In this document: positions 17,690 through 43,900 of the stretch, in pieces
Numbering within the stretch: position 1 is the first letter of the stretch
Layout of the letters: each line of letters opens with the position of its first letter
NCBI GenBank assembly: GCA_001885315.1
Contig: MLPZ01000002.1
Span: forward strand, 75,365-139,364
Origin: Treponema sp. CETP13
GTDB taxonomy: Bacteria; Spirochaetota; Spirochaetia; Treponematales; Treponemataceae
Length of the DNA stretch: 64,000 nt
Direction: 5' to 3'
The notes under the pieces: model-generated
The model's database searches: none
The model's input: the letters and a program-made list of their open reading frames with translations, nothing else
Told to the model about the DNA's origin: nothing
Position numbers and translations under genes: made by a program

Positions 17690-17835
17690 ACCGACACTTT
17701 AGCAGAATTAAAGTATCTTTTCAATTAGTAAAGAAAACGAGAAAAAAGGGAAAATAGGGGGGGAGGTGGGGGTGCAAGTTTGTCTTGCCGAGCTTTGCTA
17801 CTTTGTGAAACTTGTCGTGGAATGAGTTTCATTCT

Positions 17836-17978
17836 GGCAAATCCCCTCTTCGAGGGTCGCGCTATTACAACCTCCGCTCTCGCTCCGAAAGCCTTGTGGC
17901 TAAAAAGCCACTGCGGGTTTTTGCTACTGCAAGTTTCCATATCGCTATTTGTGCGGGCGGTAACGGGGGGGAGGGGAG
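17836..17978 (+). repeat. Unclassified ~140-nt intergenic repeat, copy A (G-run terminated)
   Basis: ggcaaatcccctcttcgagggtcgcgctattacaacctccg...tttttgcta.tgcaagtttccatatcgctatttgt.cg.gcggtaacggggggg recurs at 23093-23230 in the same orientation. About 90% identity by eye. Confidence 0.8.
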
Positions 17979-18191
17979 GATGTTTGCAGATAGAAAATCA
18001 TTATTTTATTTTACTAAAGGAGCTAGATGCGCAATTGAATGATAATCTGCTTAGGAATATAATTTTATAGTTAGTGAAAATGCAAATATTAAAAAGGCAT
18101 AAAAATGAGATTTGGCAATCAAAAACAGCAGGAAGTATCTTCAATTTGCACCGTATAAAGATAACTATGGTAAAAAATAAAGGGAGAATTT

Positions 18192-19946
18192 ATGAATATA
18201 AAACCAAAAGATAAAAACATTAAGGCATTACTTATTTCAGGTAGTCAATTTTCTATTCCAAGATTCCAAAGAGATTATTCTTGGGATAAAAAAAATTATC
18301 AAGAATTTATTGATGATATGCTTGATTGTTTACGTATATGTGATGGTAAATTGGAAACAAAAAGTTATTTTTTAGGAACAATGCTTTTTATTGGTGATTA
18401 TTCAGATTCAGTAAATAAAGACAAATCTATTTATGTTGTGGATGGACAACAACGAATTACGACCATTACTATTTTGTTTTCTGCTTTGTCAGATAGATTT
18501 AGAAGTATAGGTGAGGAAAAACTGAGTGAGCAAGTTTTTCGATACATTATGACACAAGATGATGATGGAGAAGATATAAGGGTATTAGAAAGTAAGACAC
18601 ACTATCCATACTTTTCGTTTTACATTCAAGATAGAGAAAAACTTGATGCACAAGACCCAACTACAGAAGAAGAAGAATGCATTAGAGATTCTTTTAAATA
18701 TTTATATGATAGGTTAGATGATAAAAAATTAAAACTTTATTTAAAGAAAAAACTGGGAAGTGATGAAGTTGATCAGTTAAAATATGTAGATATACTTAAA
18801 ACTTTAAGAGATCAGATATTGGGCACTACTTTTATTTCTATTTCAACGCCTGATAAAAAAAACGCTAACATGATCTTTGAAATACTCAATGCAAAAGGAA
18901 AACGATTGTCTCATGTTGATTTAATAAAAAATAAAATCTTTGAAGTATTAGAAAAGACAGAACCTGCTGATTATGCAGAAGAAAAATGGGCTGATATTAA
19001 GAAAATTTTAGTTTCTCGAGATGAAACGGTTGGGTTAGCAACTTATTACAGGCATTTTTGGATATCAACATATACAAAATCTTCAGCTACTAAACTTTAT
19101 GATAATTTTCAAAAGGCAATAAAACCTAAAACAAAGGAAAGATATAAGCAGTTCCTTTGTGAAATCGAAGAAAATGCAGAAAACTATATTAAAATACTTA
19201 ATCCGAGACGAGAAGACTATGAAAATAGAAAAGAATACTTTTGGTTAGTACAAAGTTTAAATGTTTTGATGAATTATTTTAATATTGTTCAGGTTAGAAT
19301 TGCTTTACTAGCATTATTTAATATCAAAAAAAAGGAGTATATTTCTACTAAAAAATTTAAAGAAACAATACTGTTTTTAGAAAATTTTCATTTTGCATAT
19401 AATGCAGTTGTTTCGGGGAGGACAAATAAATTTGAAGGCATATATGCAAAATTTGCTATTCAAGTAAGAAGATGTAAAGACAAATCTGAATCACAAAAAA
19501 CAATCGATCAATTGCTGATTCAACCATTAAATACATTATTTCCAGGTTTTGATCAATTTTCGAAAGGATTTGTTTCCTTGAATTACACTAGAAAAACTAA
19601 ACTCAATAATGTAAAAACTAAATATGCAATACAAAAATTAAACTCTTTTTATGATAATAAGGATGTTTTTTCTGATAATGGAAGCATTGAACATATTGTC
19701 CCAGAATCAACAGGTGAGAACTCATTCAATATAGGCAACTTAATAATATTAGAAGAAACGCTAAATGAAGAAGCTGGTGATCAAAGCTATCTTCAAAAGA
19801 AGAAAGTGTATTTAAAATCTTCTTATTCTTGGATTAATAAATTCGTGGAAGCCAATGAAGTATGGACCAAGGCTAATATCGAACAAAGAGCAATTGATCT
19901 TTCTAAGATTTACTATCGTGATATTTTAGGTAAAACAATAAGTTAA
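18192..19946 (+). CDS. GmrSD-like DUF262/DUF1524 protein (putative type IV modification-dependent restriction enzyme)
   Basis: N-terminal ParB/DUF262 motifs (..IPRFQRDYSW.., ..VVDGQQRITT..). C-terminal His-Me/HNH-like DUF1524 region (..GSIEHIVPES..NIGNLIILEETLNEEAGD..). SD aaagggag upstream. Confidence 0.7.
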   Translation: MNIKPKDKNIKALLISGSQFSIPRFQRDYSWDKKNYQEFIDDMLDCLRICDGKLETKSYFLGTMLFIGDYSDSVNKDKSIYVVDGQQRITTITILFSALSDRFRSIGEEKLSEQVFRYIMTQDDDGEDIRVLESKTHYPYFSFYIQDREKLDAQDPTTEEEECIRDSFKYLYDRLDDKKLKLYLKKKLGSDEVDQLKYVDILKTLRDQILGTTFISISTPDKKNANMIFEILNAKGKRLSHVDLIKNKIFEVLEKTEPADYAEEKWADIKKILVSRDETVGLATYYRHFWISTYTKSSATKLYDNFQKAIKPKTKERYKQFLCEIEENAENYIKILNPRREDYENRKEYFWLVQSLNVLMNYFNIVQVRIALLALFNIKKKEYISTKKFKETILFLENFHFAYNAVVSGRTNKFEGIYAKFAIQVRRCKDKSESQKTIDQLLIQPLNTLFPGFDQFSKGFVSLNYTRKTKLNNVKTKYAIQKLNSFYDNKDVFSDNGSIEHIVPESTGENSFNIGNLIILEETLNEEAGDQSYLQKKKVYLKSSYSWINKFVEANEVWTKANIEQRAIDLSKIYYRDILGKTIS

Positions 19947-20190
19947 ATAAATGTCAAAATTTACGTCAAGATCTGTTTATAAAAGATTTGTTATAGTAAT
20001 TTTATTTTATAATATAAAATGAAATTTTAGGGTAACATAGTAAATGGTACACACATTAGATTTTAAATATTAAAAATATGAACTTACAAAAGATTGAATT
20101 CTTTCCAAAATGGAAACAGTTCAATTCAAGATACCTATTTAGGCTGAATATTTTTTAAAAAACTTGTTTTTTATGTTTTAGCCATATTTA

Positions 20191-20206
20191 TTGACAAATA
20201 TGTCAA
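20191..20206. promoter_or_regulatory. Perfect palindrome TTGACAAATATGTCAA (-35-like hexamer within a 6-4-6 inverted repeat), upstream of the ATPase pair
   Basis: Read directly, 83 nt upstream of ATG 20289. Promoter or operator function is inferred only. Confidence 0.3.
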
Positions 20207-20288
20207 AAATTATTAATTAGCTATGGTAAAATACAGCTATTGGTAGTACATTGTATATATCTTGTATATATATTTGAGAGGTATAAAG

Positions 20289-21458
20289 ATGTTGTTGTCA
20301 TACAGTGCTAAAAACTTTTATTGTTTTAAAGAAGGCCTTGAAGTTTCGTTTAAGTTAGGTAAATCATGTCCTCAAGAAATATCAAATAATAAAGATTTTA
20401 CAAATGTTCTCTGCGTAAAAGGTGCAAATGGGGCAGGTAAATCTAATGCCTTAAAAGTTCTTGATTTTCTTAGATTGTTTTGTCGTGATTCTTTTTTGTT
20501 AAAGCCAGATGCACCAATAGGCTATAAAACTTTTTTTAATAATACTAATCCATCAGAGTTTTGTGTGGAATTTTCAGTCGATGGCATTGTATATCAATAT
20601 GATTTATCGATAACAAAAAATGAAATACTCAGTGAAAAGTTGTCAAAGACAGTTAAGCGCTCAAAAACGCTATTTACACGAACTAAAAATAAAGTAGAGA
20701 CAATTACAGAGTTTGATGAACTTAAAAAAATTAAATTGAGATCTAATGCTTCAATTATTAGTACGGCGCATCAGTATGAAATAAAAGAGCTTGCTGTTGT
20801 ATATTCTTTTTTTGAAAAAATAATACCGTTAAATACTACGCTTCCAAAATTGATATATAATACAAATGATATTATTAGAAATTCACAACCTTTTGCTGAG
20901 TTGCATTCAATTAATCAAAATTATTATGATTATCCCGAAGCGTTTGCTTTTACAAAAGATATCTTAAAAAAATTTGATTTAGGAATTAAAGATATAAAGA
21001 TTAAAAAAGTTCAAATAGATAAAGACAATATTGAATATAATCCATATTTTGTTCATGAAAATAATAAAAAAGAGTATGAGCTTCCTTTTGAATTAGAATC
21101 TTCTGGGACAAGAAGTTTATATAATCAACTATTTTTTTATTATGGGGTACTTGAAGTGGGGGGTGTTTTTGTTTTAGACGAGTTTGATGTTAATTTGCAT
21201 CCAGATATATTGCCGTTATTAATAGACTTATTTACAAATAAAGAAACAAATCCTCATAATGCACAATTATTATTTACAACACATAATTCTGAAATCCTTA
21301 ATACATTGGGTAAATACCGCACGGTATTAGTCAACAAAGAAGCAAATGAAAGTTATTTATATCGTCTAGATGAACTTCCCGGCGATATAATTAGAAATGA
21401 TCGTCCTCTAGAACCGGTCTATCGGAGTGGTAAAATTGGAGGTGTCCCTAAAGTATGA
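20289..21458 (+). CDS. AAA15/AAA21-type (ABC/SMC-like, COG1106-like) ATPase, defence-associated
   Basis: Walker A GANGAGKSN, signature-like ESSGTRSLY, Walker B VFVLDEFDVNLHPD, TTHNSE, and C-terminal ..YRSGKIGGVPKV. Start taken at ATG 20289 after gagagg. Confidence 0.7.
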   Translation: MLLSYSAKNFYCFKEGLEVSFKLGKSCPQEISNNKDFTNVLCVKGANGAGKSNALKVLDFLRLFCRDSFLLKPDAPIGYKTFFNNTNPSEFCVEFSVDGIVYQYDLSITKNEILSEKLSKTVKRSKTLFTRTKNKVETITEFDELKKIKLRSNASIISTAHQYEIKELAVVYSFFEKIIPLNTTLPKLIYNTNDIIRNSQPFAELHSINQNYYDYPEAFAFTKDILKKFDLGIKDIKIKKVQIDKDNIEYNPYFVHENNKKEYELPFELESSGTRSLYNQLFFYYGVLEVGGVFVLDEFDVNLHPDILPLLIDLFTNKETNPHNAQLLFTTHNSEILNTLGKYRTVLVNKEANESYLYRLDELPGDIIRNDRPLEPVYRSGKIGGVPKV

Positions 21459-21967: not shown

Positions 21968-22020
21968 AACTCTATGTAAGGCCTTTTAACCCCCTCGAGT
22001 TCGAAGGGGTTAAAAAACGT

Positions 22021-22341
22021 ATTCAATCTAAGCTACGTTAATCATAAATAGGAGCTTCAGTATCAATGCACTGTAACATTTGCTCAGCTACTTTTTTCCC
22101 TGACCGGATCATTCCGCCAAATACAGGTCCCATTCTGTAAGCTCCGGCTACGCCATTTGCAGCCATTCCACTAACAAAAAGACGAGGATAAATTTCGCAT
22201 GTATTTTCAGCCGTGGCAAGTTCGGCTTTTTTACATTTTAAAGATCTCTCGCCCATAACCTTACCAGTCTTTGTATTAAGTGTTATTTCGTTTTTTCGGG
22301 TTAACACATTTACAATTTCAGATGGATGGCCGGTAGCATCT
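22021..22341. repeat. 321-bp direct repeat, copy 1 (3' end of intact thi4 plus 17 nt downstream)
   Basis: Aligns without indels to 42894-43214, with about 19 mismatches by manual alignment. Confidence 0.9.
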
Positions 22342-22832
22342 AAGACACAACGACTTATAGCCATAAGAGGATCTACATGCATATGCTCTTTATGTACAGG
22401 AGCCCAATTTAAAACAACTCCACCAATACTTTCGTCTTTTGCAAAAATAATATCTTCGATACTTATCATATTAAGAAGTGTTACCCCAGCTTCTACAGCC
22501 TTAGAAATAAGAGTAGATGCAAGGTAAACCGAATCGATAGTATAAAAATTGTCTTTTACCTCAGGAAGTTCTACTCCTATTTCTGATAAAATAGTGGCCG
22601 CTTCTTCTTGAACCATAACGTCATTAAAAAACATACCACCACCCCAAATTCCACCACCAGGGGCAAGTTCGCGCTCAAACATTACCACTTTTTTTCCAGC
22701 TTTAGCTAAAAAATATCCAGCAACAAGCCCAGATGGTCCTGAACCTACAATAATTGCATCTGAGTCCAACGCACTCTTTAATTTTGTGTGATAAGAATCT
22801 AAAATTCCTTTTGAAACATTGTATTCTAACAT
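22038..22832 (-). CDS. thi4: Thiazole synthase, Thi4 family
   Basis: Dinucleotide-binding IVGSGPSGLVAGYFLA, then ..ERELAPGGGIWGGGMFFN.. and ..LDATGHPSEIV... Preceded by a TPP riboswitch. Confidence 0.85.
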   Translation of the reverse strand: MLEYNVSKGILDSYHTKLKSALDSDAIIVGSGPSGLVAGYFLAKAGKKVVMFERELAPGGGIWGGGMFFNDVMVQEEAATILSEIGVELPEVKDNFYTIDSVYLASTLISKAVEAGVTLLNMISIEDIIFAKDESIGGVVLNWAPVHKEHMHVDPLMAISRCVLDATGHPSEIVNVLTRKNEITLNTKTGKVMGERSLKCKKAELATAENTCEIYPRLFVSGMAANGVAGAYRMGPVFGGMIRSGKKVAEQMLQCIDTEAPIYD

Positions 22833-22939
22833 ATGTTCCTCCTAAGTTTTATGAACAGGAGAACCACCAATTTAGAGATTTGTCTTTTAGAATATAGAGT
22901 TTGAGGTATTGTTACGATTTTTTGTTTACATAAATACAT

Positions 22940-23020
22940 GAAAACCGCCTCCCTGCGCTGGCATTATCCAGATCAGGTTCAAAGGGTATATTCTCAGCTC
23001 GTTAGGAGCACCCCTGTTCA
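22940..23020 (-). promoter_or_regulatory. TPP (THI-box) riboswitch upstream of thi4
   Basis: The minus strand reads acaggggtgctcctaacgagctgagaatataccctttgaacctgatctggataatgccagcgcagggaggcgg. This contains the conserved CUGAGA, ACCUGAUCUGGAUAAUGCCAGCG core. Confidence 0.85.
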
Positions 23021-23092
23021 ATTATTTATAAATAGTAATGATATTAAAAAACATTTACAAGTGTTTTTAAGTTTTTTTTCGCTTGCATCTTT

Positions 23093-23230
23093 GGCAAATC
23101 CCCTCTTCGAGGGTCGCGCTATTACAACCTCCGCTTCCGCTTCGAAAGCCTCGTGCCTAAAGTCACTCGGGTTTTTGCTAACGCAAGTTTCCATATCGCT
23201 ATTTGTACGAGCGGTAACGGGGGGAGGGGG
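23093..23230 (+). repeat. Unclassified ~140-nt intergenic repeat, copy B
   Basis: Same orientation and about 90% identity to 17836-17978. Ends in G6AG5 followed by A8. Confidence 0.8.
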
Positions 23231-23286
23231 AAAAAAAATTTGATTATTTCAAAATTAAGTAGTAACTTAACAGGTGAGGAGTATTA

Positions 23287-24192
23287 ATGGAAAAAGAGTT
23301 TAACCAATTTATAGAGAAGATTACTTTAACAACGAAACAAAAAGATGAAGCTAAAACAAAGTATACAGGGGTATGTAAAAAAGTTCATGATTATTATTAT
23401 GATTGTAATTATGATGGATCAACTAAATTTTTATTTGGATCGTACAAATTAAAAACAAATATTAGACCGATTACAAAAGATCAAGATGTTGATGTTTTGA
23501 TTAAATTACCACAAGAAACTTTTGAAAAATTTAATAATTATCAAAGTAATGGACAATCAGCGTTATTAGAAGAAGTCAAAAGCATATTAAAAGAAAAATA
23601 TACGACAACTGATAAAATAAAAAGTTGGGGAAAAGTTATACTGCTTCAATTTGAAGATAGTACCCATAATATTGAATTATTACCAGCATTTGAACAGGAT
23701 GATAATAGTTTTAAAATCCCAAATACCGAAAATGGTGGAAGTTGGGAAGTATTTAACCCTAGAGCTCAAATTGATGCTTTTAATGAAAGTAATAAAAATA
23801 GTGATGGGTTGACCCGTAAGATATGTAAAATGGTTAAAAAATGGCGAAACTTTACTACTTCTGTTTCTATAAAGTCATGTTCTATTCAAGATTGGGCAAT
23901 CGATTTCCTTGCTAGTAATAAAGTAGATCAGTTAGAAATAGAAGAAATATTACAAAAATATTTCGAATTCATAAGATCAAAATGTTCTTCAGATAATAAA
24001 TCCTATGTTGAAACTGTATTAAAACGTATTGAAAAAGCAATTAATTATATTGATGATGGAGAGGAAAACGAAGCTTCTCAAGAATTTAGAAAAATTTTTG
24101 GTAATGAATTCCCTTTAGTAGAAGATAGTTCAAAAACAAATAGTTTTGATAATAATATATTTTCTACTCCTCGACCATGGCTAGAAAATTAA
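23287..24192 (+). CDS. SMODS / minimal CD-NTase-like nucleotidyltransferase
   Basis: Pol-beta NTase motif FGSYKLKTNIRPITKDQDVDVLIKL (GS...DxD) plus a downstream acidic strand NIELLPAF. 301 aa. First gene of a tightly packed three-gene cassette. Confidence 0.65.
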   Translation: MEKEFNQFIEKITLTTKQKDEAKTKYTGVCKKVHDYYYDCNYDGSTKFLFGSYKLKTNIRPITKDQDVDVLIKLPQETFEKFNNYQSNGQSALLEEVKSILKEKYTTTDKIKSWGKVILLQFEDSTHNIELLPAFEQDDNSFKIPNTENGGSWEVFNPRAQIDAFNESNKNSDGLTRKICKMVKKWRNFTTSVSIKSCSIQDWAIDFLASNKVDQLEIEEILQKYFEFIRSKCSSDNKSYVETVLKRIEKAINYIDDGEENEASQEFRKIFGNEFPLVEDSSKTNSFDNNIFSTPRPWLEN

Positions 24193-24767
24193 TGATTTTA
24201 AGACCTTCTAAGATAGACTTAGATTGGTTAAATAATAATCAACCTAAGTTATGTTTTAATAATAAAAATATAATTGAAGGAATATATAAATTAAATAGTA
24301 GTTATAAGGGTGTCGCTTTAAAAGGTAATTACAAAATCAAGATAGATCTTTTAGTTGATAATATAGATTTAATTCCTACTGTTTATTTATATCCCGAAAA
24401 TCTACATAGGATTCTTAATAAATCTGATCTAAAAATAAGTGATTTACATATAAATTCTGATTTTTCTCTCTGCTTGTGTATTCCTGAACTTGCGAAAGAC
24501 TATTTGCCTCATGGATATAATTTAAAAGAATTTATAATCAATTTAGTAAATCCGTTTTTCTATTGGATACGGTCTTATTGTTTAAATAAAAAAAAACCAT
24601 GGAATGATTATTCTCATGGTTTCCAAGGATACAAAGAAGCTTTTGGCGTTGATGTTTTTGAAACGAAGAAATCAGTTAATAATCAAGAGTTATATAATTG
24701 TATTAAAAAAAAATTTGGTAGTGAATATCTAAGTAAACAAGCTTTTCGAAAAATAATAAGAGGTTAA
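24177..24767 (+). CDS. Prokaryotic E2 (UBC-fold)-like protein
   Basis: ..IPTVYLYPENL...DLHINSDFSLCLCIPEL.. resembles the E2 HPN-x(n)-C-L catalytic motif. The start overlaps the NTase gene; alternative ATG at 24192 (TAATG). Confidence 0.5.
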   Translation: MARKLMILRPSKIDLDWLNNNQPKLCFNNKNIIEGIYKLNSSYKGVALKGNYKIKIDLLVDNIDLIPTVYLYPENLHRILNKSDLKISDLHINSDFSLCLCIPELAKDYLPHGYNLKEFIINLVNPFFYWIRSYCLNKKKPWNDYSHGFQGYKEAFGVDVFETKKSVNNQELYNCIKKKFGSEYLSKQAFRKIIRG

Positions 24768-24768
24768 T

Positions 24769-25350
24769 ATGATTGATTTTACGAATTTATCAGTTTTAAG
24801 ACAAAATTTTGCAAATGTAGTATATACCATGAAGATTCATGAAATATGTAAAGAAAAAGCTGCTATAGGTAAGGTTATATATGCTATTGTAAATATTATT
24901 TTAATTGGTTTAACATTTGTAATTATTACGTTTGGTAATATTTTTTTTAATATCGGGGTCTGTAATATTTTTTCTTCTTTGTTTTCATTAAGTGCGTTAA
25001 TTTTGTTTATATGTACTTTAGTATTCAATCCTAATAATAAGTATAAACAACATGAAACGACAGCTAATAAACTATTACTAATAAGAGAAAAATATATAAA
25101 TCTTATGGCGGATATTGTTACTGAAAATATATCTTCAGATTTAATCAAGCAAAAAAGTGATGGTTTAGTAAATGAAGTAGAAAAAATCTATGCAGAAGCT
25201 CCATATCGATCACGACGATGTTATAAAGAAGCACAAAGACGATTAAGAGGTAAAAATGTCGAAGGAGAGGATTTTACTACCTCAGATAAAGAAATAGATC
25301 GTTTTTTGCCGAGTGAATTAAAATATTCTACATTAAAAGATAATAAATAA
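24769..25350 (+). CDS. SLATT-like two-TM membrane effector
   Basis: N-terminal helix (..VVYTMKIHEICKEKAA..), then two TM helices (VIYAIVNIILIGLTFVIITF, IFSSLFSLSALILFICTLVF) and a helical C-terminal region. Starts 1 nt after the upstream stop. Confidence 0.55.
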   Translation: MIDFTNLSVLRQNFANVVYTMKIHEICKEKAAIGKVIYAIVNIILIGLTFVIITFGNIFFNIGVCNIFSSLFSLSALILFICTLVFNPNNKYKQHETTANKLLLIREKYINLMADIVTENISSDLIKQKSDGLVNEVEKIYAEAPYRSRRCYKEAQRRLRGKNVEGEDFTTSDKEIDRFLPSELKYSTLKDNK

Positions 25351-25456
25351 ATTTAAGTATTGGCTCTATCAAGAATGGCAAGAAACCTGAAAATGGTTTA
25401 ATATAGTAGGTATTCCACAGCTACTAAGAAATTACCAAATACTGTAAGGTAGAGCA

Positions 25457-33488: not shown

Positions 33489-33598
33489 TTGGAGTTTTCC
33501 ATGGGTAAAAAATTAACAGTATATTTAATAGATGGATACTATTGTTTACTAAAAGCAATAGCAATGAGGGGTAAGTGACTACAGCTATAATAATGTTG

Positions 33599-36202
33599 CT
33601 AAAATAAACTTCCTATGAGATCAGATTTATTTATATCTAGTTGTGCAGACGGAAATAAAGCTGCCCCTTTTATGGATTGCTTTTTGGATAATAAAATATT
33701 AAGCTTTTCATCAAAGGTTGTAAGGCCTGCTATTTTACCTATAAAAGTATAAACATGAACTGTTTTTTGTTGGCCTATTCTGTAAACTCGATCAGTAGCC
33801 TGATCTTCTTTTGCAGGATTCCAATGTCTACTAAAATGAATAACATTATTAGCTTCTGTAATAGTTAACCCCACTCCAGCAGCTATAGGAGACATAATAA
33901 TTACATTAAATCCTTTTGTATTTTTAAATCGTGCTAAAATTGAAGTACGAGCTACTATACTTGTGCTACCATTGAATATTTGAGGACTGATGCAAAATTC
34001 CTGATTAATAATATCTGCTAGTATATTTTGTGTATGAATGAATTCAGCAAATATTATTACTTTTTCGTTTTTATCTTTTATATTTTTTAATATTTTCTTT
34101 AGTATAATTGTTTTTGCCGTATCTTGCATAGAATATGTACCGGTATCAAATTTGTTAATAAAACTGTAATGATCTGAAACTTGTCGTAATTTTTGTAATA
34201 TTTGCAACTTATCAGACAACGAACGATGCTCTGTTGCCAATGCTAAAACTTGTTGATATACATTCCTTTGCTTTGAGGGCATATATTCAGTCACAGTAAT
34301 CAATTCTTTCTTTGGTAAATCTGGGAGATTATTAATTTTAAGTCGCCTTAAAAATATTTTATCTAATTTACATCTAATTTTTTTACCTTTATCACTTATT
34401 ACGCTATCGTCTTCGTCTCCGTCTAAACGGAATTCTTGCATAAATTGTTTATGTGATCCTAATAAGCCTGGTGATACAAAATCTGAAATAGCCCAAATAT
34501 CAGAAAATGAATTTTCTACAGGTGTTCCAGTTGCGGCTATTTTAAATTGAGCTTTTAGAGCTCGAACTGTTCTGTTTGTTAATGTTTTTGGATTTTTAAT
34601 TCGTTGTGCTTCATCCAATATTACTACATCCCATTGTATTTTTATATAAAGATCACAATTACGGATGTTTTCATAACTTGCAATATACAAAGTTGGATAG
34701 ATGTTTTTTATATGTCCTATTTGATTTTGTAATAAATTTTTTAGTGGTTGCCTATTATTAGAAGCTAAAATTATTTTGTATTTTTGTTGCTTAAAAAATT
34801 TACTATATTCATTTTTCCAGTTCTGTTTTAACGATGCTGGTACAATAAGTAATATATTTAAGTTTTTATCAGCAATTGATTGAATAAACGAAAGCAGTTG
34901 AAAAGTTTTCCCCAATCCCATATCATCGGCAAGTATACAGCCTGAAAATTTATCGCAATATAACGAATATAGCCAAGCAATTCCTTCTCTTTGGTATTTT
35001 TTTGGTATTATTCCTTCTTTATACTCTTTAATAATATTAGGAAAGAGATACTTGTCTAATAAATTAATATTGCTTTCAGAATAATCTACTATTTCTTCAT
35101 TATCTTTTATATTAAGGGTTTTAAGTAGTTTTTTTTCATGTTCACTTTGATTTAATGAGATTGTTTTTTCATCTAAAAATTTATCACTGTCTTCAAACCA
35201 TCTGTTATTACTAGTGTTGTTAATATTTAATTCTGGTTCATATAGTTTCCACCCAATAACACGATCTCCATAAAGATTTGAAACATCAACTAAATCATCG
35301 TTCCAATTTTCGGGTGGATTTAAAAGAAATTCTCTTAAGTCTTTAGGGGAAGCTTTTTCCATGTGTTTTATATCAGATAAAACTTTTGTTTGATCCTCCG
35401 ACAGCAATACTTTTATTGTTAAATCATTGGTTGATTTTACGTTATAAATAGTATCAGCAGATATTCTGTTTTCTACATGAGAGTTAAAGTCTTCTTGATT
35501 TATTTCGGGGATATCAATACCTGAAGTCATTTTAAAACCGTTTGATGTTTGTATTATATCAGGTACTATTTTTGTTGGTGAAACTATTTTTGTAGTTGCA
35601 TAATTTCTAACCATTGTTGCGTCAGCTTTTTTTACTGCTTGTTGTATTTTTTCGAGAGCCTGATATTTTTTTGTCTGATTAAAATGTTTCCAATCTTTAT
35701 TTATAATTTCTATTGTTTTATGGAGTAGATATTCATATATATTTATAGATCCATATACTTCTTTGGTTTTAGGAGTATACAAAATAATACCGTCTCGTAG
35801 TAATAATAAACTATCGATATTACCAAATCTTGAAATTGTTTTAGGATATTCTATTTTCCAAAAAGAATTTGAACTTGAAAAACTACCTTGTAAAGAGACA
35901 AAAGGCTGTCTTGATGTATTTTCAGGCGGGAAACCATAATCAAAAATCAGTTGTGTAAAGTCTTTTTTTGGTTCTTCATGGAGCAGAACATTTTCAACAA
36001 TATCTTCTAGTGATAACTGAAGTATACCGGTAGATAATAATTCTGAATTATCTTGAACAATCATACGAAATAAATTGAAATATTTTGAGTCTATTTTAGT
36101 AGCTTCTTCTGTTAGTTCTAAGTCAAAGCCGTAAGAATCTTTATATATAGTAAATCCATAAAATGTATAGATATCCTCTGAAACGAATTCAATGTTTTTC
36201 AT
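33599..36202 (-). CDS. zorD: Zorya type I ZorD-like SNF2-family helicase
   Basis: SNF2 motifs I LADDMGLGKT, II LDEAQRIKN, III ATGTPVEN, and C-terminal ..HWNPAKEDQATDRVYRIGQ... Last gene of the zorABCD-ordered operon, with a 4-nt overlap with the upstream gene. Confidence 0.75.
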   Translation of the reverse strand: MKNIEFVSEDIYTFYGFTIYKDSYGFDLELTEEATKIDSKYFNLFRMIVQDNSELLSTGILQLSLEDIVENVLLHEEPKKDFTQLIFDYGFPPENTSRQPFVSLQGSFSSSNSFWKIEYPKTISRFGNIDSLLLLRDGIILYTPKTKEVYGSINIYEYLLHKTIEIINKDWKHFNQTKKYQALEKIQQAVKKADATMVRNYATTKIVSPTKIVPDIIQTSNGFKMTSGIDIPEINQEDFNSHVENRISADTIYNVKSTNDLTIKVLLSEDQTKVLSDIKHMEKASPKDLREFLLNPPENWNDDLVDVSNLYGDRVIGWKLYEPELNINNTSNNRWFEDSDKFLDEKTISLNQSEHEKKLLKTLNIKDNEEIVDYSESNINLLDKYLFPNIIKEYKEGIIPKKYQREGIAWLYSLYCDKFSGCILADDMGLGKTFQLLSFIQSIADKNLNILLIVPASLKQNWKNEYSKFFKQQKYKIILASNNRQPLKNLLQNQIGHIKNIYPTLYIASYENIRNCDLYIKIQWDVVILDEAQRIKNPKTLTNRTVRALKAQFKIAATGTPVENSFSDIWAISDFVSPGLLGSHKQFMQEFRLDGDEDDSVISDKGKKIRCKLDKIFLRRLKINNLPDLPKKELITVTEYMPSKQRNVYQQVLALATEHRSLSDKLQILQKLRQVSDHYSFINKFDTGTYSMQDTAKTIILKKILKNIKDKNEKVIIFAEFIHTQNILADIINQEFCISPQIFNGSTSIVARTSILARFKNTKGFNVIIMSPIAAGVGLTITEANNVIHFSRHWNPAKEDQATDRVYRIGQQKTVHVYTFIGKIAGLTTFDEKLNILLSKKQSIKGAALFPSAQLDINKSDLIGSLF

Positions 36203-37647
36203 TTTTTGCTTCCTGGGAATATATTATTGTAACTTAATAAGCGAATTGTATTCCTTCTCCATCTACCTATATGAGTTATTCTACCTTCTCCAGATAAATT
36301 GTTAAAAACAGAACCTTCTCTGTATATATTTAATGTTTTAGTATTTTCTATGCTTTTTTTAACAAGAAGACTTTTAATCTTTTTGTTATCAGAATTAAAA
36401 ACTTGTCCCGAATGACCAGTTTGAAAATAATCAACTAAAATCTTAGTGTAAAAAATAATAATAAAAATAGGAGCTTCGTATTTGCTAGTACTTTTATTAT
36501 TGATGCAATGTTTTAAAAATATGGTTTTATATTCTTCTGTTAAATCTTCAAAAATAATATTTTTTTGAATGCTATTAACAACAAATTTAATATCACTCAT
36601 TTGCTTAGAGTTTCCATATTTTCTCCAAAATTCAGCACGTTCTTTTCCTCTTTTATCACCAGCCACTTGAGTTAAGGAATCGTAAAATTGCGTAATAATA
36701 AATCTATTAAAAATACTTTGATAGTATTTATGGGCAGAATTCATCATTTCGTTATATTTGATTGTTTTATATTTAGAATCAGCTAAGTTCCAAAAGGTTT
36801 TTTCTGTTTTATCTTTGTTTGGAGTTGGGAAAATTTCTTTATCAATCGTGCGTATAAAATCATCATTTTTTAAACTGAAATTATTTGCATAAGATTTAAT
36901 AATAACATGTGCAAAAAATATAATTTTTTCATCATTTGTACTATTATCTATTAATTTCTTATTTGCTTTTAAAAATTCAAGGGTAAAATTATTTAAGCTT
37001 AAAAACCATGATAAAAAAAATGAGTTAAAATAGCGAGTATAAATATATGTTGATGAAATTCCAATTTTTTGTAAAACTGCATATAAGGTTTCAGCTTTTA
37101 CCGAATTAATTTTACCTTCTGTGTATTTTCGGTTTGTATAAAGTTGCAGATCTGAAATATAAAAAGGATCTTTCTTTTTTAATGTACTAAAAACTTTAAA
37201 AACTAGCTGTTGTATAAATTTTTTCGGATCTTCATAGCTTAAATAGTATCGCATAATTGGAACAGCAATAGTGCTGTAGTCGTGTTTATTAATTGAATCA
37301 AAAAATACGAGTAGTTTTTTTTCGTTCTTTTCTGAATCAAAAGGGGAATTATTAATTTTGATTCGGTGAATATTTGCTATTATTTTTATTAAATTTTGTT
37401 TAGTGAATATGTTTATATTTGATTTAGGGTTTTCGAAGAAAGTTTTAAGTAATTTTTGTAAGTCAAATATTTTTTTTTCTGAAATATTTTCAATAATGTC
37501 ATATTTATTATTAAAAGAATCTAAATATTTTATAAACTCTTTCCAGCTTTTTTCGAGTGGTTCATCTGGCCATATATCATTTAAGGTATTAGTTGTTGTA
37601 CGATTTAATGACATTAAAGCAGAATAAGATTGTATATCAGTATTCAT
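36199..37647 (-). CDS. zorC: Zorya type I ZorC-like protein (EH-signature-like C-terminus)
   Basis: Lies between the MotB-like and SNF2 genes. The C-terminal ..RAEFWRKYG..., ..VDYFQTGHSGQVF.. and ..RITHIGRWRRNTIRLL.. are compatible with the EH-signature domain. Assigned mainly by context. Confidence 0.55.
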   Translation of the reverse strand: MNTDIQSYSALMSLNRTTTNTLNDIWPDEPLEKSWKEFIKYLDSFNNKYDIIENISEKKIFDLQKLLKTFFENPKSNINIFTKQNLIKIIANIHRIKINNSPFDSEKNEKKLLVFFDSINKHDYSTIAVPIMRYYLSYEDPKKFIQQLVFKVFSTLKKKDPFYISDLQLYTNRKYTEGKINSVKAETLYAVLQKIGISSTYIYTRYFNSFFLSWFLSLNNFTLEFLKANKKLIDNSTNDEKIIFFAHVIIKSYANNFSLKNDDFIRTIDKEIFPTPNKDKTEKTFWNLADSKYKTIKYNEMMNSAHKYYQSIFNRFIITQFYDSLTQVAGDKRGKERAEFWRKYGNSKQMSDIKFVVNSIQKNIIFEDLTEEYKTIFLKHCINNKSTSKYEAPIFIIIFYTKILVDYFQTGHSGQVFNSDNKKIKSLLVKKSIENTKTLNIYREGSVFNNLSGEGRITHIGRWRRNTIRLLSYNNIFPGSKK

Positions 37648-37653
37648 AAAATC

Positions 37654-38355
37654 CTAAAAATCCTTTGTAGCGAGGTCTTCAACAACTTTTTCGGCCTTTG
37701 TTTTGATTTTAAACTCTACACGCCTAGAAGCTTTTGAGTTAATTTTATTATCAATAATTACAGGCCTTGAATTTGAATACCCAATTGCAGCAATATTTTT
37801 TTGGACCCATTCACGATTTTCAGAAAGTGCATTTAGGGAATATAACATTACATTTGTTGTTCGTTCTTGTGAAAGTACCATACCGGTTGTATAATCTTGG
37901 TTTTTACTCATCCGTTCGTTTGTTGCTGTATGTCCTTCAATCCTAATTTCTTCTATCTCATTTTTGTAATCGTCTTGTTTTAAAACTGTAATAAGTCTTG
38001 GGAAAAAATTAGATAATATTGTTTTAAATGAGTTTTTTAGTATAGCTTTGTCTGGTTCAAAAAGTACCTCTGAATCAGTAAATCGAATGGTTAAATCTGG
38101 GGTGATTTCAGCATTCCATTTTTCTAAATCGTCTTTAAATTCTTCTGTCAATTCCTTATATAGATTATTTTGCATAGAATAATATTCTTCGGCTTTTTTA
38201 TTTTTAGATACATATTCTGACTTTGATAAATTTAACTGAACAATAACAACAATCATGATTAATGCAAAAATACCACATAGGGCTGCCATTAGATCACTTA
38301 TAGATAAATCAAAACTAGAATTCTCTTTTTCCGAAAAAGTTTTTCTAGTACGCAT
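37654..38355 (-). CDS. zorB: Zorya ZorB (MotB/OmpA-like stator subunit)
   Basis: Single TM with a conserved Asp (LSISDLMAALCGIFALIMIVV). C-terminal OmpA-like region (RIEGHT...LSQERT...GYSNSRP...SRRVEFKI). Confidence 0.8.
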   Translation of the reverse strand: MRTRKTFSEKENSSFDLSISDLMAALCGIFALIMIVVIVQLNLSKSEYVSKNKKAEEYYSMQNNLYKELTEEFKDDLEKWNAEITPDLTIRFTDSEVLFEPDKAILKNSFKTILSNFFPRLITVLKQDDYKNEIEEIRIEGHTATNERMSKNQDYTTGMVLSQERTTNVMLYSLNALSENREWVQKNIAAIGYSNSRPVIIDNKINSKASRRVEFKIKTKAEKVVEDLATKDF

Positions 38356-40922
38356 TATTTACTTTCCTTATTATTAATTATCTCATTAAGGGTTTTAACA
38401 GAATTATCAAATTTGCCAGAAATTTTTTCAATGTTGGAAAGGGTTGTAGATAAGGTTTCTATAGTATCACCAAAGTCTTGGGTTGAACTAGTAATGGTTG
38501 AGCTAAAAGCCTTTGATCCATCTTGAAAAGAAGCTAAATATTGAGAAAGGGTTGAATTTACCGTAGAATTATATGTTGCAATTTCCTTCCCGATTGATTC
38601 AAAAATATCTTTTAAATTAACATCTACATTTTTAAAGCCTTCAAGCATTGTGTTTGTTTCATTTATTACATTTGTTAAGTTTTTCCCGCTAGTATCTTCA
38701 TGTAATTTAGCACTTACAAGTAATTCTTTTACATTATTTTCAGCAATTGATAAATCATGCAATAAATCAGAAATACCACTTTCCATTTTATCAAGATAAT
38801 TTGTTATGCTATTTGAAATATCTGTCATTTTTTGTGCAGCCTGTTCAAATTTTTCTCCAACATTTTTTTCAGAAGTAGTGTAGGTTTCTAAAAGGTCTTT
38901 AAGTCTATCAGGTAAGCTGTTTAGCACTTCTGAAGCTTTAACACTATTTTCTAATGCAGAATTTAATGAATTATTAAAATTCATAAATTGTTTAGCAAGC
39001 TTTTCATCTATTGTAGTAACGATTTCATCTAAAGCTTTGCTGTTTGTTTTTAGATTAAGATCTAGCATTTCAGAAAAACCTGTCCTTGTTTCTTCTAAAT
39101 ATTGTGTAAGTTCACTATTTGCCATTTCTAATATATTGGGAGTGTCTGCTATTTTTTGTGCAACATCGCTTAATCTTTTGGTGGTTTCAATAAGAGCTTC
39201 TTTTAAGCCCCCTAGTTCTGTATGAACATTTTCTACAACTGCAGATTTTAGTTCTCCTCCGACGTCAGAAGCCATTTTCCCCATAGCATGATTTACAGTT
39301 TCATTCATATTAGCAATTTTATCAGCAAGATTATCGTTAAAGTTGTTTAAGGCATCTGTTTGATTATTCATATTTTCAATTATAAAACGCAAACTGTTAC
39401 TGAAAGTTACCGTTTCTTGGTTTTCATCTGTAAGCATTGTATATTCCATTAAGGCTTCGGTTTCAGAAACATAATAAGATTTATCTAGCGAATCTGTAAT
39501 TTCTACAAGCTCGGTATTAATATTATGCATTACTGGAATATAAATTAGAAAATTATAAATAAGAGAACAAAACACACCTACTATTGAAGTATTAAAAGCT
39601 GTTGTCAGTCCATTTTGGATTAATGCTTTAATACTTTCTGTCATCAGTGTTACATCAGTCGTTGTTAAATTTATATTATCAAATCCAATAGAAAACCCTA
39701 TAAATGTGCCTAAGATCCCAAATCCAATAAAAGAAGCAGAAAATAAGCGAAAATAATTAGCTACAGGTAATTTACACTGAGCATCTATTACTGAATTAAA
39801 ATCAAAATACAAGTCGGCAATGGCTCTGGTTTTATTATTTATTCCAAAACTTTTACTAAAAAAAGTTGCTTTATATGTTTTCCAAATAGAATGCGTTGCT
39901 AAATTTTCAGTTTCTGGCTCATTATCTGAGTCAAGATATTCTTTTTCTTTTGATATAGTGTTTTCAAATTTTTTATATTTGGTCTTAATTATAAATGGAG
40001 TCACACATGTACCTATAGTATATAAAAAAAATAGTACATAATATATATCGCTAATCAGGGATTTTGCATTACTGAAACAGGGTTTGTATAAAAAAAGCAA
40101 AAAAATGAGAAATACACTCGTTGCACCAATTACAGTTAAAAAATATTCTTTGAGTAGTTTTTTGTCTATAGTTTTTTTTGTTTCAGTAAATTCTGGCACG
40201 CCATTTTTCTGAAATTCTTTATTTGAAAGATCATGTGACAGAGTTTCATCATTTTCAAAACTTATTTCATTTAAAGTAAGTGGAGTGTCATATGTCTGTG
40301 CACTTTCAACAACCGTAGAATTTGTTTCGTCAGTACTATTTTCAGTAATTGCAGGAGAACCATTTTCCTCTTCAAAATTTATAGCATCTGTAACTTCAGA
40401 TTCATTTTGTTTGTTTTCTTGAGGGGTGTTATTAAACTCATATATTATTTCCACTTTGCCATATTTATCATCAAAAGCTTGAATAATAACTTTTATCTCT
40501 TTTACATCGCTTTTATATTCATCTTTTATATCTTTGTTCCATACATAATAAAGGTTGTCAGGTGTGGATTTGAGTTTTTCTACTAATTTTATATCATCAT
40601 AATTTAATATAATATCATCTACAGATTCTTCGGGTGTTATATTTCCATATTGTTTTATTAGTTTATTTTTAAAATACACAAACTTTTTAAGCAACTCTGA
40701 ATAAGGGAAATTTTCAGAAATTAAAATAATTTGAAATAATCCATATTGTGGGTCTATTTTTGTTTTACAAATACCGATGTTGTCTAGTGATGTTGTTCGC
40801 GGATGTGCTTGATATGTATTTTCAGTGGTACTTGATATTTTTTTAATCTCAGCTGAAGACATTGTATTTACTTCTTCTACTGACATTCCTTTTTTATATC
40901 CATATATTGAAACATTGCTCAT
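38355..40922 (-). CDS. zorA: Zorya ZorA (MotA/ExbB-like) with a long coiled-coil tail and a ~250-aa N-terminal extension
   Basis: Four hydrophobic helices, with the MotA/ExbB-like pair FSASFIGFGILGTFIGF / AFNTSIVGVFCSLIYNFLIY. About 390 aa of helical, low-complexity tail follow. A 1-nt overlap with zorB. Confidence 0.75.
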   Translation of the reverse strand: MSNVSIYGYKKGMSVEEVNTMSSAEIKKISSTTENTYQAHPRTTSLDNIGICKTKIDPQYGLFQIILISENFPYSELLKKFVYFKNKLIKQYGNITPEESVDDIILNYDDIKLVEKLKSTPDNLYYVWNKDIKDEYKSDVKEIKVIIQAFDDKYGKVEIIYEFNNTPQENKQNESEVTDAINFEEENGSPAITENSTDETNSTVVESAQTYDTPLTLNEISFENDETLSHDLSNKEFQKNGVPEFTETKKTIDKKLLKEYFLTVIGATSVFLIFLLFLYKPCFSNAKSLISDIYYVLFFLYTIGTCVTPFIIKTKYKKFENTISKEKEYLDSDNEPETENLATHSIWKTYKATFFSKSFGINNKTRAIADLYFDFNSVIDAQCKLPVANYFRLFSASFIGFGILGTFIGFSIGFDNINLTTTDVTLMTESIKALIQNGLTTAFNTSIVGVFCSLIYNFLIYIPVMHNINTELVEITDSLDKSYYVSETEALMEYTMLTDENQETVTFSNSLRFIIENMNNQTDALNNFNDNLADKIANMNETVNHAMGKMASDVGGELKSAVVENVHTELGGLKEALIETTKRLSDVAQKIADTPNILEMANSELTQYLEETRTGFSEMLDLNLKTNSKALDEIVTTIDEKLAKQFMNFNNSLNSALENSVKASEVLNSLPDRLKDLLETYTTSEKNVGEKFEQAAQKMTDISNSITNYLDKMESGISDLLHDLSIAENNVKELLVSAKLHEDTSGKNLTNVINETNTMLEGFKNVDVNLKDIFESIGKEIATYNSTVNSTLSQYLASFQDGSKAFSSTITSSTQDFGDTIETLSTTLSNIEKISGKFDNSVKTLNEIINNKESK

Positions 40923-41370
40923 TTTCGATTCCCTTTTTCTTATTTTATAATTTTATCATCGATGGTTATCTCTTTTCAAGTACAAAAAATTCGATTAACA
41001 TTATTAGATATTTATAAATACTATTTTTAGTATTCTTTATTTTAATTGCTAATACATTTTGTAAATACAACAGATAGTCTTTCTCGCAAAAATATCCAAT
41101 ATTAGGTAAGTACTTGGGAAGACTTTACAAGTAATGTTCAAATAAATAGCATATGAAAACTATTTAAAAAAGTATATGGAATTTCCAAATTATATGATGA
41201 ATTTATAAAGTTGGTTAACAATGAAAAAACCTTTTATGTGCTTTTGATGTATTACTAGATAGTTCAAACGTCCTTAATCATATTGATAAAGGTATGAGAA
41301 CTTGTGCCCAATTGTTTTTATTAGAATTTTAATTAACACAACTAATTTGATTTTTATCGATAGTCATGAT

Positions 41371-41416
41371 AGTATTAAATGCATACAGTTTTTTAAATTT
41401 GTATGCATTTAATACT
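41371..41416. promoter_or_regulatory. Perfect 17-bp inverted repeat abutting the abiEi start codon (candidate AbiEi operator)
   Basis: agtattaaatgcataca (41371-41387) and tgtatgcatttaatact (41400-41416), with a 12-nt spacer. ATG at 41417. Confidence 0.55.
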
Positions 41417-42022
41417 ATGAATAAACAAGAAATTGCGACAAAGATACTAACTCAAAAAAATGGAATAGCAAAAACAGCTGATTTTGCTGTTGCTCATCTA
41501 AGCAATAATGATATTTCTAGTCTTTGCAAATTAGGCGTTATAAAGCGGATTAAACGAGGCATCTATACCTTCCCAAATGAGAGTAATCTTTCGGAAGAAC
41601 AGCTGCTTGTGTCTGTTTTACCACAGGCAATAATTTGTGTTGAATCTGCTCTTTTTTATTACGGGTATAGTGATTTTACGCCACGAAGGTGGTCTATAGC
41701 CGTACCCAGAACTGCAATAAAACAAGTTAAAAATACTGAACTGTTTTTTCTAAAAGCATATTATATCCAAAAAGAGTTTATTAATCTTGGCAAGACTACA
41801 GGTGTTTTTAATGGAGTAGAACTTGCATTGTACAATCGGGAACGTACTATTTGTGATTGTTTTAAGTATAGAACAAAGCTTGATAATGAACTTTTTAATA
41901 AAGCCATGATTGCATATATTGCCGATGATAAAAAAGATCTTGCACAACTAGCTAAATATTCCAAAGAAATGAAGATTTATAATAAAGTGATGTCACTTAT
42001 GGAGGTTTTACTTAATGGCTGA
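41417..42022 (+). CDS. abiEi: AbiEi-family type IV toxin-antitoxin antitoxin / transcriptional regulator
   Basis: N-terminal wHTH-like ..GIAKTADFAVAHLSNNDISSLCKLGVIKRIKRGIYTF.. and ..ICVESALFYYGYSD.. are typical of AbiEi. It overlaps the downstream NTase toxin gene. Start moved to Met18 (41417). Confidence 0.7.
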   Translation: MNKQEIATKILTQKNGIAKTADFAVAHLSNNDISSLCKLGVIKRIKRGIYTFPNESNLSEEQLLVSVLPQAIICVESALFYYGYSDFTPRRWSIAVPRTAIKQVKNTELFFLKAYYIQKEFINLGKTTGVFNGVELALYNRERTICDCFKYRTKLDNELFNKAMIAYIADDKKDLAQLAKYSKEMKIYNKVMSLMEVLLNG

Positions 42023-42866
42023 TAAAGCTTCGTCAGTGCTTGCGCGTTTAAAAAATAAAGCGAAAGAAACAGGGAAAAACTATCAATTTTGTTTGCAACT
42101 ATTTTGTCAGGAAGAATTTCTTCGACGCTTAGAAAAATCAAAATATAACGAAAACTTTGTGCTAAAAGGTGGACTCTTTATTTATTCTATTACGAATTTT
42201 AATAGTAGGGTAACCGTAGATATCGATTTTATGCTTCGAAATATACAGAATACACCAGAGCGAATTAAAGATATTATTGAAGAAATAATTGAATGTGATG
42301 CTGGTAATGGATTTATTACTTTTGAAGTAAAAGGTACCGCTCCTATTGCTATAAATAAAAAATATACAGGTATAACGGCAAGTATTGTTGCTTATATAAA
42401 AAACACTCGTATGCCATTCAGTATTGATTTTGGTGTTGGTGATGTTATTGTTCCTACTTGGACTAAAAGAGAAATTCCAACGCAATTAAATGATTTTACA
42501 TCACCGCTAGTTAATACATATTCACTCGAAACAACAATAGCAGAAAAGCTTGATGCAATATTAAATCTTATGGAATTTTCAAGTCGTATGAAGGATTACT
42601 ATGATATTTATTATCTGTCTAACAGATTTGAATTTGATGAAAGTATACTTACTAAAGCCTTAAAAAAAACATTTGAAAATCGGAAACATGATTTTACTCT
42701 TGAGCAATTTGAACAACTTATGACTTTTGATACTGATGACGCCATGCAAAAAAAATGGAAAGCATTTGCTCGTAAAATTGACATTGAAACAGACAATTAC
42801 ACTACTGTGCTAAAAACAATAAATGATTTTTTAAGAATACCTTTTAAAAGTGCTATTAAAGATTAA
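42015..42866 (+). CDS. abiEii: AbiEii/AbiGii-family nucleotidyltransferase toxin
   Basis: ..FVLKGGLFIY....VTVDIDF.. NTase motif and ..TIAEKLDAIL... 283 aa. 8-nt overlap with abiEi. Confidence 0.75.
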   Translation: MADKASSVLARLKNKAKETGKNYQFCLQLFCQEEFLRRLEKSKYNENFVLKGGLFIYSITNFNSRVTVDIDFMLRNIQNTPERIKDIIEEIIECDAGNGFITFEVKGTAPIAINKKYTGITASIVAYIKNTRMPFSIDFGVGDVIVPTWTKREIPTQLNDFTSPLVNTYSLETTIAEKLDAILNLMEFSSRMKDYYDIYYLSNRFEFDESILTKALKKTFENRKHDFTLEQFEQLMTFDTDDAMQKKWKAFARKIDIETDNYTTVLKTINDFLRIPFKSAIKD

Positions 42867-42893
42867 TAATGACAACACATGGTTTCGATTACG

Positions 42894-43214
42894 ATTCAAT
42901 CTAAGCTACGTTAATCATAAATAGGAGCTTCAGTATCAATGCACTGTAACATTTGCTCAGCTACTTTCTTTCCTGACCGGATCATTCCGCCAAATACAGG
43001 ACCCATTCTATAAGCGCCAGCTACTCCATTGGCAGCCATTCCACTCACAAAAAGACGAGGATAAATTTCGCATGTATTTTCAACAGTGGCAAGTTCGGCC
43101 TTTCGACATTTTAAAGATTTCTCGCCCATAACCTTACCAGTCTCGGTATTAAGTGTTATTTCGTTTTTTCGGGTTAACACATTAACAATTTCAGATGGAT
43201 GACCGGTAGCATCT
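42894..43214 (-). pseudogene. Truncated second copy of the thi4 3' end (direct repeat copy 2)
   Basis: Encodes only ..DATGHPSEIVNVLTRKNEITLNTETGKVMGEKSL...APIYD. Homology to the intact thi4 stops abruptly at 43214. About 94% nucleotide identity to 22021-22341. Confidence 0.9.
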
Positions 43215-43217
43215 TTG

Positions 43218-43260
43218 GTGAAACCATCTTTTGAGTGAAACCATCTTTTGTGTAAAACAT
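43218..43260. repeat. 17-bp tandem repeat (gtgaaaccatcttttg[at]), about 2.5 copies, at the thi4-fragment junction
   Basis: Read directly at 43218-43234 and 43235-43251, followed by a degenerate partial copy. Confidence 0.8.
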
Positions 43261-43268
43261 AAACTTTT

Positions 43269-43460
43269 TCATACTACTTTATATTCTCCTCGCCCTAAAA
43301 ATTGAATAAACTCTTTGTCTCGTAAAAATTGTAATTGCTGTCGTATTTTTGCTTGTACGTTACTGTTGTCCGGATGTTTTTTACTAAGTTTTTCTTCAAA
43401 AAGCGTATAAAAATTTGCAACTGGTTTATTGCTTTTCCAAATATAAATATATTTTGTATT
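43269..43460 (-). pseudogene. Start-less remnant ORF ending ..NVQAKIRQQLQFLRDKEFIQFLGRGEYKVV* (winged-helix tail of the kind seen at restriction-enzyme C-termini)
   Basis: Translated by hand on the minus strand. There is no Met or alternative start in the 63 codons after the cdd stop. The family assignment comes from memory of similar ..IRQ.LQ.LRD.G.I.F.G.G.Y.. tails, so it is weak. Confidence 0.35.
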
Positions 43461-43461
43461 C

Positions 43462-43887: not shown

Positions 43888-43900
43888 TTTTCACTCCTTA

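Follow-up and report, generated by a model that had tools for sequence, protein, structure and literature searches.

In Pseudomonas aeruginosa, the core defence hotspots cDHS1 and cDHS2 are fixed places on the chromosome that carry variable stacks of defence systems. Surveyed over more than 1600 haplotypes, they have a median size of ~26 kb, a deviant G+C content and no marks of mobile genetic elements (MGEs); their transfer by homologous recombination in the flanks has been proposed, and how the blocks come to be stacked was left open (Johnson et al. 2023, NAR, PMC10250203). Here we describe a comparable locus in the spirochaete Treponema sp. CETP13, contained in a window of 64,000 nucleotides (GenBank assembly GCA_001885315.1, contig MLPZ01000002.1, forward strand; G000:C10:75365-139364 in our genome panel, where assembly G000 amounts to 2.54 Mb in 21 contigs and contig C10 to 173 kb). 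Positions 17690-43461 of this window, a 25.7-kb interval between a hisA-hisIE fusion gene (hisA-IE) and a cdd-like deaminase gene, are densely occupied by immunity genes. In our preferred reading, whose probability we put at roughly 0.6, the interval is an anti-phage defence island of the chromosome and occupies a hotspot, upstream of hisA-IE, whose content varies between strains; unequal homologous recombination would have stacked two alternative alleles of the cargo there, and deletions would then have trimmed them.

The island consists of two cargo blocks, X and Y, and not of seven separate insertions. Along the + strand, hisA-IE is followed by a spacer, an 85-bp segment resembling a repetitive extragenic palindromic (REP) sequence, a first copy of a boundary element that we call A (A1), block X, a unit made of T1, thi4 and its riboswitch, and the second copy of A (A2); then come block Y, T2, the stub of an AF_1447 gene, the relic of a DpnI gene and cdd (Table 1). 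Each block is bracketed by A on its left and, on its right, by T, the 3′ end of the thiazole synthase gene thi4 with the 17 bp that follow it. Block X (4 kb) holds a GmrSD gene and an AbiL-like pair, and block Y (19.7 kb) runs from a cyclic-oligonucleotide-based antiphage signalling system (CBASS) through AbiE. The repeats are direct, with 89.5% identity between A1 and A2 and 94% between T1 and T2 over duplicated stretches of 143 and 321 bp; A1 and A2 are the only copies of A in the genome, and both A and T are confined to this contig. This bracketing is new here and had been missed by an earlier sequence-only reading, which had counted at least seven immunity modules around thi4 and its riboswitch. 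Every one of these modules was confirmed when the island genes were typed with Pfam and PADLOC (NCBIfam, Rfam, PDB and AlphaFold2 being used for particular features), and thi4 and the riboswitch by their Pfam and Rfam matches. That reading had also proposed serial recombination rather than a single mobile element, which is supported by the duplicated borders (90-94% identity), the microhomology joints, the differences between strains and the lack of attachment (att) sites, the unit being the two blocks.

Further scars are found at the right edge of the island, where three deletion joints have microhomologies of 6, 8 and 12 bp. The gene remnants that had been placed at module junctions (a thi4 fragment, the DpnI relic and the AF_1447 stub) are all three real; their distribution is different, as all are clustered at this edge. 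The joints from AbiE through T2, stub and relic to cdd are confirmed, because a separately deposited contig, JTFO01007920, reproduces window positions 40800-43531 at 100% identity.

Table 1. Features of the island and its flanks, from left to right in window coordinates.
Feature	Position	Strand	Match or remark
hisD	14947-16314		further left of hisA-hisIE
hisA-hisIE fusion	16370-17689	-	NCBIfam HisIE and HisA; conserved left flank
Native hisA-IE upstream spacer (n)	17690-17749		common to empty-site L040; alignments compared by eye
85-bp segment	17750-17834		G-run (17757-17772) and REP-like short repeat; also in L046
A1	17835-17980	+	145-nt G+C-rich boundary element, directly left of block X; covariance model 177 bits
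GmrSD-like type IV restriction enzyme	18192-19946	+	PF03235 (GmrSD_N), PF07510 (GmrSD_C); PADLOC HEC-06/Orf5 1e-68
AbiLi-like AAA_21 ATPase	20262-21458	+	PF13304 4e-41; PADLOC AbiLi 4e-70
ATPase partner, 170 aa	21455-21967	+	overlaps ATPase gene by 4 nt; conserved in L046
T1	22021-22341	-	last 304 bp of intact thi4 and 17 bp downstream; right border of block X
thi4 (sulfide-dependent thiazole synthase)	22038-22832	-	sole intact copy; PF01946 2e-72
Thiamine pyrophosphate (TPP) riboswitch of thi4	22933-23025	-	Rfam RF00059, 71.1 bits
A2	23092-23231	+	second boundary-element copy, directly left of block Y
CD-NTase	23287-24192	+	CBASS; PADLOC Cyclase 1e-63
E2-like protein	24177-24767	+	CBASS; PADLOC E2 1e-17
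SLATT_4 effector, two transmembrane segments	24769-25350	+	CBASS; PADLOC 2TM effector 1e-40
hsdR	25457-28429	+	Pfam; PADLOC REase_I E=0
hsdS	28419-29699	+	Pfam; PADLOC Specificity_I 4e-104
prrC	29696-30808	+	PADLOC PrrC 2e-138, full-length match
hsdM	30792-32396	+	Pfam; PADLOC MTase_I 4e-153
RhuM-family protein	32448-33488	+	PF13310 6e-112; PADLOC candidate PDC-S05 6e-145
ZorD	33599-36202	-	PADLOC 3e-174, residues 347-867, SNF2-type
ZorC-like protein, 482 aa	36199-37647	-	fold match to ZorC 8r68
ZorB	37654-38355	-	PADLOC 9e-66
ZorA	38355-40922	-	PADLOC 1e-19; 855 aa
AbiEi	41366-42022	+	PADLOC 5e-58; Pfam
AbiEii	42015-42866	+	PADLOC 1e-88; Pfam
T2	42894-43214	-	17 bp and 3′ 304 bp of truncated second thi4; right border of block Y
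AF_1447 gene stub	43215-43277	-	17-bp tandem duplication; joined to thi4 at microhomology AGATGCTAnCGG
DpnI-like restriction gene relic	43270-43432	-	matches three segments of the intact L040 gene, which meet at microhomologies CAATAA and ATTTTTAT
cdd-like deaminase gene	43462-43887	-	right flank; 96% DNA identity to L040

Two metagenome contigs of the same species show the locus in other states: L040 (JGI Ga0502372_000308), with 96-99% DNA identity to the window in the compared stretches, and L046 (ENA k141_2953091), with 95-97%. In L040, the order is cdd, an intact DpnI gene, AF_1447, A, the riboswitch, thi4, an 85-bp gap and hisA-IE, with none of the seven defence modules. In L046, thi4 is reduced to its last 72 codons, which are fused to the end of a PHP gene; these codons and the same 17 bp are followed by block X, A, the 85 bp and hisA-IE. 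The conspecific haplotypes at the locus are three, one empty (L040), one with block X only (L046) and the window with both blocks; against conspecifics, cdd is conserved. At the genus level the interval measures ~29 kb, to about position 47000: in the sole genome of the same genus, G001, one unrelated GH13-like gene separates hisA-IE from an operon encoding a GntR regulator and an ATP-binding cassette transporter (GntR-ABC), which starts at 47024 in the window. The same gene order is accordingly not shared by all relatives, and the locus has the traits of a hotspot, namely clustered defence systems, variable content at the same flanks and no MGE genes.

Repeated recombination is indicated by the mosaic of identities across the locus. 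Compared with L040, T2 is 98.6% identical over its first 220 bp and T1 91.8%, and A2 is 95.8% and A1 88.8% identical to the L040 copy of A. Within block X, DNA identity between G000 and L046 amounts to 99-100% for the GmrSD gene, 89-94% for AbiLi, 98-99% for the gene of the 170-aa partner, 92% for T and 87% for A. A donor was sought by a locus search with thi4, which found nothing, and by exact look-ups of hisA-IE, GmrSD, the cyclase and thi4, which gave no match.

The island lacks mobility functions of its own, and the earlier statement that it lacks an integrase, a transposase, a phage structural gene and a flanking tRNA holds. No gene for an integrase, transposase, relaxase, phage or conjugation protein is present in the island, where the open reading frames (ORFs) of at least 170 aa are all explained and the intergenic gaps, none of them longer than 600 bp, leave no room for a hidden gene. 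No tRNA gene lies beside it, the nearest being 6.8 kb away. A search for tyrosine recombinases (PF00589) gave no match on the whole contig and seven elsewhere in the genome, and no recombinase was found just outside the modules or farther along the contig. The 24.9-kb cargo had no match in a phage collection and, in a plasmid collection, only short matches to type I restriction-modification (R-M) genes. The hallmarks of an integrase-mobilised island are missing: there is no recombinase at an end, and there are neither short identical att repeats nor an adjacent tRNA.

In the reading that we prefer, X and Y would have been allelic alternatives in a single slot bounded by thi4 and by the copy of A upstream of hisA-IE, a second copy of A lying upstream of the thi4 riboswitch. 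Two haplotypes, perhaps brought together by transformation or transduction, would have undergone an unequal crossover between these paralogous A copies, placing X and Y in tandem and duplicating thi4 by the same event. Microhomology-mediated deletions would then have trimmed this arrangement: the redundant thi4 would have lost its 5′ part along with its riboswitch and its copy of A, AF_1447 the greater part of its length and the resident DpnI gene its interior, with T2, the stub and the relic left behind. Several observations weigh against this scenario. None of the three haplotypes has Y alone in the slot, the parental Y allele being hypothetical, and the junction between A2 and CBASS (23232-23287) is seen in this assembly alone. 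With only three haplotypes and one same-genus genome to compare, the change may have been an insertion in G000 or a deletion in L040, and L040 itself may be a deletion derivative, because the 17 bp after thi4 resemble the sequence 3′ of thi4 in another species (L041). G000 is also probably a metagenome-assembled genome (MAG), since 16S (515F, 1492R) and 23S signature motifs were not found on any of its contigs.

This last point bears on the possibility that the island is an assembly chimera, in which a strain with X and intact thi4 and a strain with Y and truncated thi4 were threaded through their shared A, and no single molecule carries both blocks. L046 demonstrates that a haplotype with cargo plus a truncated thi4 exists, and the A2-Y junction has no independent support, the exact look-ups of the cyclase and thi4 having returned nothing. 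However, the 10% difference between A1 and A2 and the 6% difference between T1 and T2 show that these are not collapsed repeats; hisA-IE, cdd, A and T are found nowhere but on this contig, with no leftover alternative branches; and a chimeric path would require inconsistent choices at two graph branches. Two variants specific to T1 also recur in T2 but in neither L040 nor L046, a weak sign of co-residence, and overall we consider such a chimera rather improbable. Slightly better placed, while still unlikely, is an origin by two successive Campbell-type (‘ends-in’) homologous integrations of circular or gapped fragments, each made of the thi4 3′ end with its 17 bp, cargo and A, into an A-riboswitch-thi4 unit, giving three units of which two were later truncated. 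Such events leave cargo between A and the thi4 3′ end, as both blocks show, and imported homology arms would be expected to diverge most, as T1 and A1 do. Yet two integrations and two separate truncations are more steps than the stacking of two alleles demands, and the riboswitch and thi4 must have been cleanly lost between A1 and hisA-IE, where no joint scar is seen. L046, moreover, already has the order X, A, 85 bp and hisA-IE, which is simpler if the A beside hisA-IE is the resident copy.

The repeats themselves recall another origin, from one or more decayed integrative elements (a genomic island, a satellite or the remnant of an integrative and conjugative element) whose integrase and att sites were lost. 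Targeting of a gene's 3′ end leaves a duplicated 3′ fragment, and T1 and T2, as direct repeats of such an end, could be former attachment-site duplications; the low G+C content suggests foreign origin as well. This is nevertheless very unlikely, given the missing mobility genes described above and the lack of phage matches, the plasmid matches being short and limited to R-M. The geometry also speaks against it: each cargo has two different sequences, A and T, at its ends instead of a single att repeat, the truncated thi4 is found upstream of the promoter of the intact gene and not downstream of that gene, and the repeats are long (143-321 bp) and 6-10% diverged.

The four copies of A (A1, A2, L040:9593-9748 and L046:4261-4423) share a multi-stem fold, in one hairpin of which three double changes in L046 leave the pairing intact, and their G·U pairs favour the + strand, i.e. 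transcription towards the cargo. No match was found in Rfam even at E≤1, and a covariance model built from the four copies found nothing in 120 genomes of the family, nor at another species' thi4 loci; a scan with 22-mers found nothing in the genome contigs and one chance match in a high-G+C metagenome contig. A known or widespread RNA can thus be rejected, the element being confined to the locus of this species; A may be an RNA, a promoter region or no more than a stretch of homology. There is an outside chance that the A-riboswitch-thi4 cassette provides portable homology arms for swapping and stacking defence blocks, with A as a lineage-specific structured element transcribed towards the cargo and thi4 stabilizing the island. 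If so, recombination between A1 and A2 or between T1 and T2 that sheds a block would also destroy thiazole synthesis, as the sole intact thi4 lies between the repeats.

None of the 40 relatives sampled across genus, family and order has a thi4 gene, and the idea of a core gene split by insertions was rejected on this ground. The window contains two TPP riboswitches; the second, at 49058-49163, controls a permease-thiM-thiE-HAD-thiD cluster 26 kb from thi4.

In composition, the island stands apart, as first noticed from the letters alone: a sliding-window check gave 29.7% G+C for 17690-43461, against 36.7% and 33.6% in its flanks and a genome mean of 33.4% (sd 1.2) over windows of the same size. 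This corresponds to the 0.4 percentile of the genome, and only one region, on contig C13, is lower. That stretch (C13, ~106000-142000), whose lowest 25.8-kb windows (29.3-30.5% G+C) start at 106-116 kb, may be another island.

The two flanks are of different depth. The hisA-hisIE gene is present in 33 of 41 related genomes, its nearest named homologues are from Treponema and other spirochaete MAGs, and most genera of the family keep the HisA-HisI-HisE triple fusion, with identities of 66-86%. The cdd-like gene is conserved only within the species and accessory within the family, as a rare paralogue; it was rejected as a core flank, the family-wide cdd being located on contig C17, and the neighbouring GNAT-YoaP gene is also rare. 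Synteny of the GntR-ABC operon is limited to the genus; elsewhere the operon does not lie near hisA-IE, so that synteny with other genera proved uninformative. To the right of cdd lies a second variable stretch, where the window (43462-46660) has GNAT-YoaP, MATE and OmpA lipoprotein genes, and the space from cdd to MATE in L040 (1-8576) is taken up by genes for PHP, flavodoxin, FGE-sulfatase and two arylsulfotransferases. On the left side, the REP-like repeat beside A1 (17773-17829) has one further copy at C1:104-154 (blastn) and three in tandem at ~C6:22993-23230 (blastn and reading), and contains the internal inverted repeats CAAGTTTG...CAAACTTG and GAATGAG...CTCATTC.

Block X encodes a GmrSD-like enzyme, predicted to restrict modified DNA, and an ATPase that matches AbiLi of the AbiL system. 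The 170-aa partner has no match in Pfam, PADLOC, NCBIfam or PDB, and gives no AbiLii match; the pair is AbiL-like on the ATPase side. In L046, the GmrSD region (2710-4171) lacks 396 bp matching window positions 18149-18544 and is called as two ORFs, so this copy is probably inactivated. The AbiLi-like ATPases of the two haplotypes (window 20262-21458, L046:1199-2368) are 91% identical in protein, and this divergence between near-identical neighbours indicates local diversification or allele exchange.

Block Y opens with a type II (short) CBASS, with a CD-NTase, an effector and an E2-only Cap2 in a cassette (23287-25350) matching PF18144 and PF18186; it would act through cyclic-oligonucleotide signalling to the membrane effector. 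It is followed by a type I R-M operon with intact HsdR, HsdS and HsdM genes and prrC, which by its gene content should restrict unmodified DNA, the predicted PrrC anticodon nuclease serving as a backup that should fire if R-M is inhibited. The AbiE module has both the AbiEi antitoxin and the AbiEii nucleotidyltransferase of this type IV toxin-antitoxin system; like RhuM and the AbiL-like pair of block X, it is a putative abortive-infection or toxin module. A 24-nt near-perfect inverted repeat (92%) at 41369-41418 overlaps the annotated start of AbiEi; translation may in fact start from the ATG at 41417, the inverted repeat then serving as an operator.

Between RhuM and AbiE, the operon at 33599-40922 is a divergent type I Zorya. 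It has the MotAB-like ZorA/ZorB pair and the SNF2 helicase ZorD of this type, and the assignment also draws on the 482-aa protein encoded with them, a ZorC candidate by its fold and its homologues. No hidden Markov model match (PADLOC, NCBIfam and others) and no PDB sequence match were found for this protein, and the sole significant PDB match of its AlphaFold2 model (of medium quality, mean predicted local distance difference test score 67) is ZorC 8r68 (E=3.5e-5, template modelling scores 0.43/0.51). Only four homologues, with 39-42% identity, were found among 5.8 billion proteins, and they stand in ZorA-ZorB-X operons, one of which also has an SNF2 helicase. ZorA falls below the NCBIfam cut-offs and is matched by PDB ZorA chains at ~1e-4 to 4e-3; its MotA core begins ~250 residues later than in the profiles, which implies an N-terminal extension. 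The N-terminal 346 aa of ZorD are unmatched. Judged from these similarities, a ZorAB motor with the putative ZorC and ZorD may form a further immunity layer.

Compared with the systems they resemble, the modules differ to various degrees. The CBASS shares with the type II (short) form its CD-NTase, its E2-only Cap2-like protein and its two-transmembrane SLATT effector, and nothing unusual was detected in it. The R-M operon resembles the classical prr locus of E. coli CT196 (EcoprrI) in having a gene for a PrrC-family ATPase/anticodon nuclease inside a type I R-M operon. The classical gene order is M-S-PrrC-R, whereas it is R-S-PrrC-M here. The Zorya operon shares with the E. coli type I system (structures 8qyd and 8r68) four genes, a ZorA/ZorB pair, a protein with a putative ZorC fold and an SNF2-type ZorD, and differs in that its ZorC-like protein is unrecognizable by sequence, as well as in a late MotA core in the 855-aa ZorA and the unmatched N-terminus of ZorD.

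As a whole, the island is like cDHS1 and cDHS2 in being a defence stack at a fixed site with a conserved flank, of similar size, with deviant G+C and no MGE marks. It differs in phylum and in its flanking genes, only the left flank (hisA-IE) being family-wide core here, and three haplotypes are available as opposed to more than 1600. It also contains internal duplicated boundary pieces and microhomology joints, direct scars of stacking. The assembly of defence hotspots devoid of mobility genes is an open question (PMC10250203), and this locus keeps its scars legible: the duplicated borders, the empty and single-block haplotypes and the microhomology joints point to ordinary homologous and illegitimate recombination sufficing to stack modules. 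It extends such hotspots to the spirochaetes, with a very divergent Zorya held in the island. Among known kinds of locus, the core defence hotspot of P. aeruginosa comes closest, and the defence systems of the spirochaete island are members, or divergent members, of known families.

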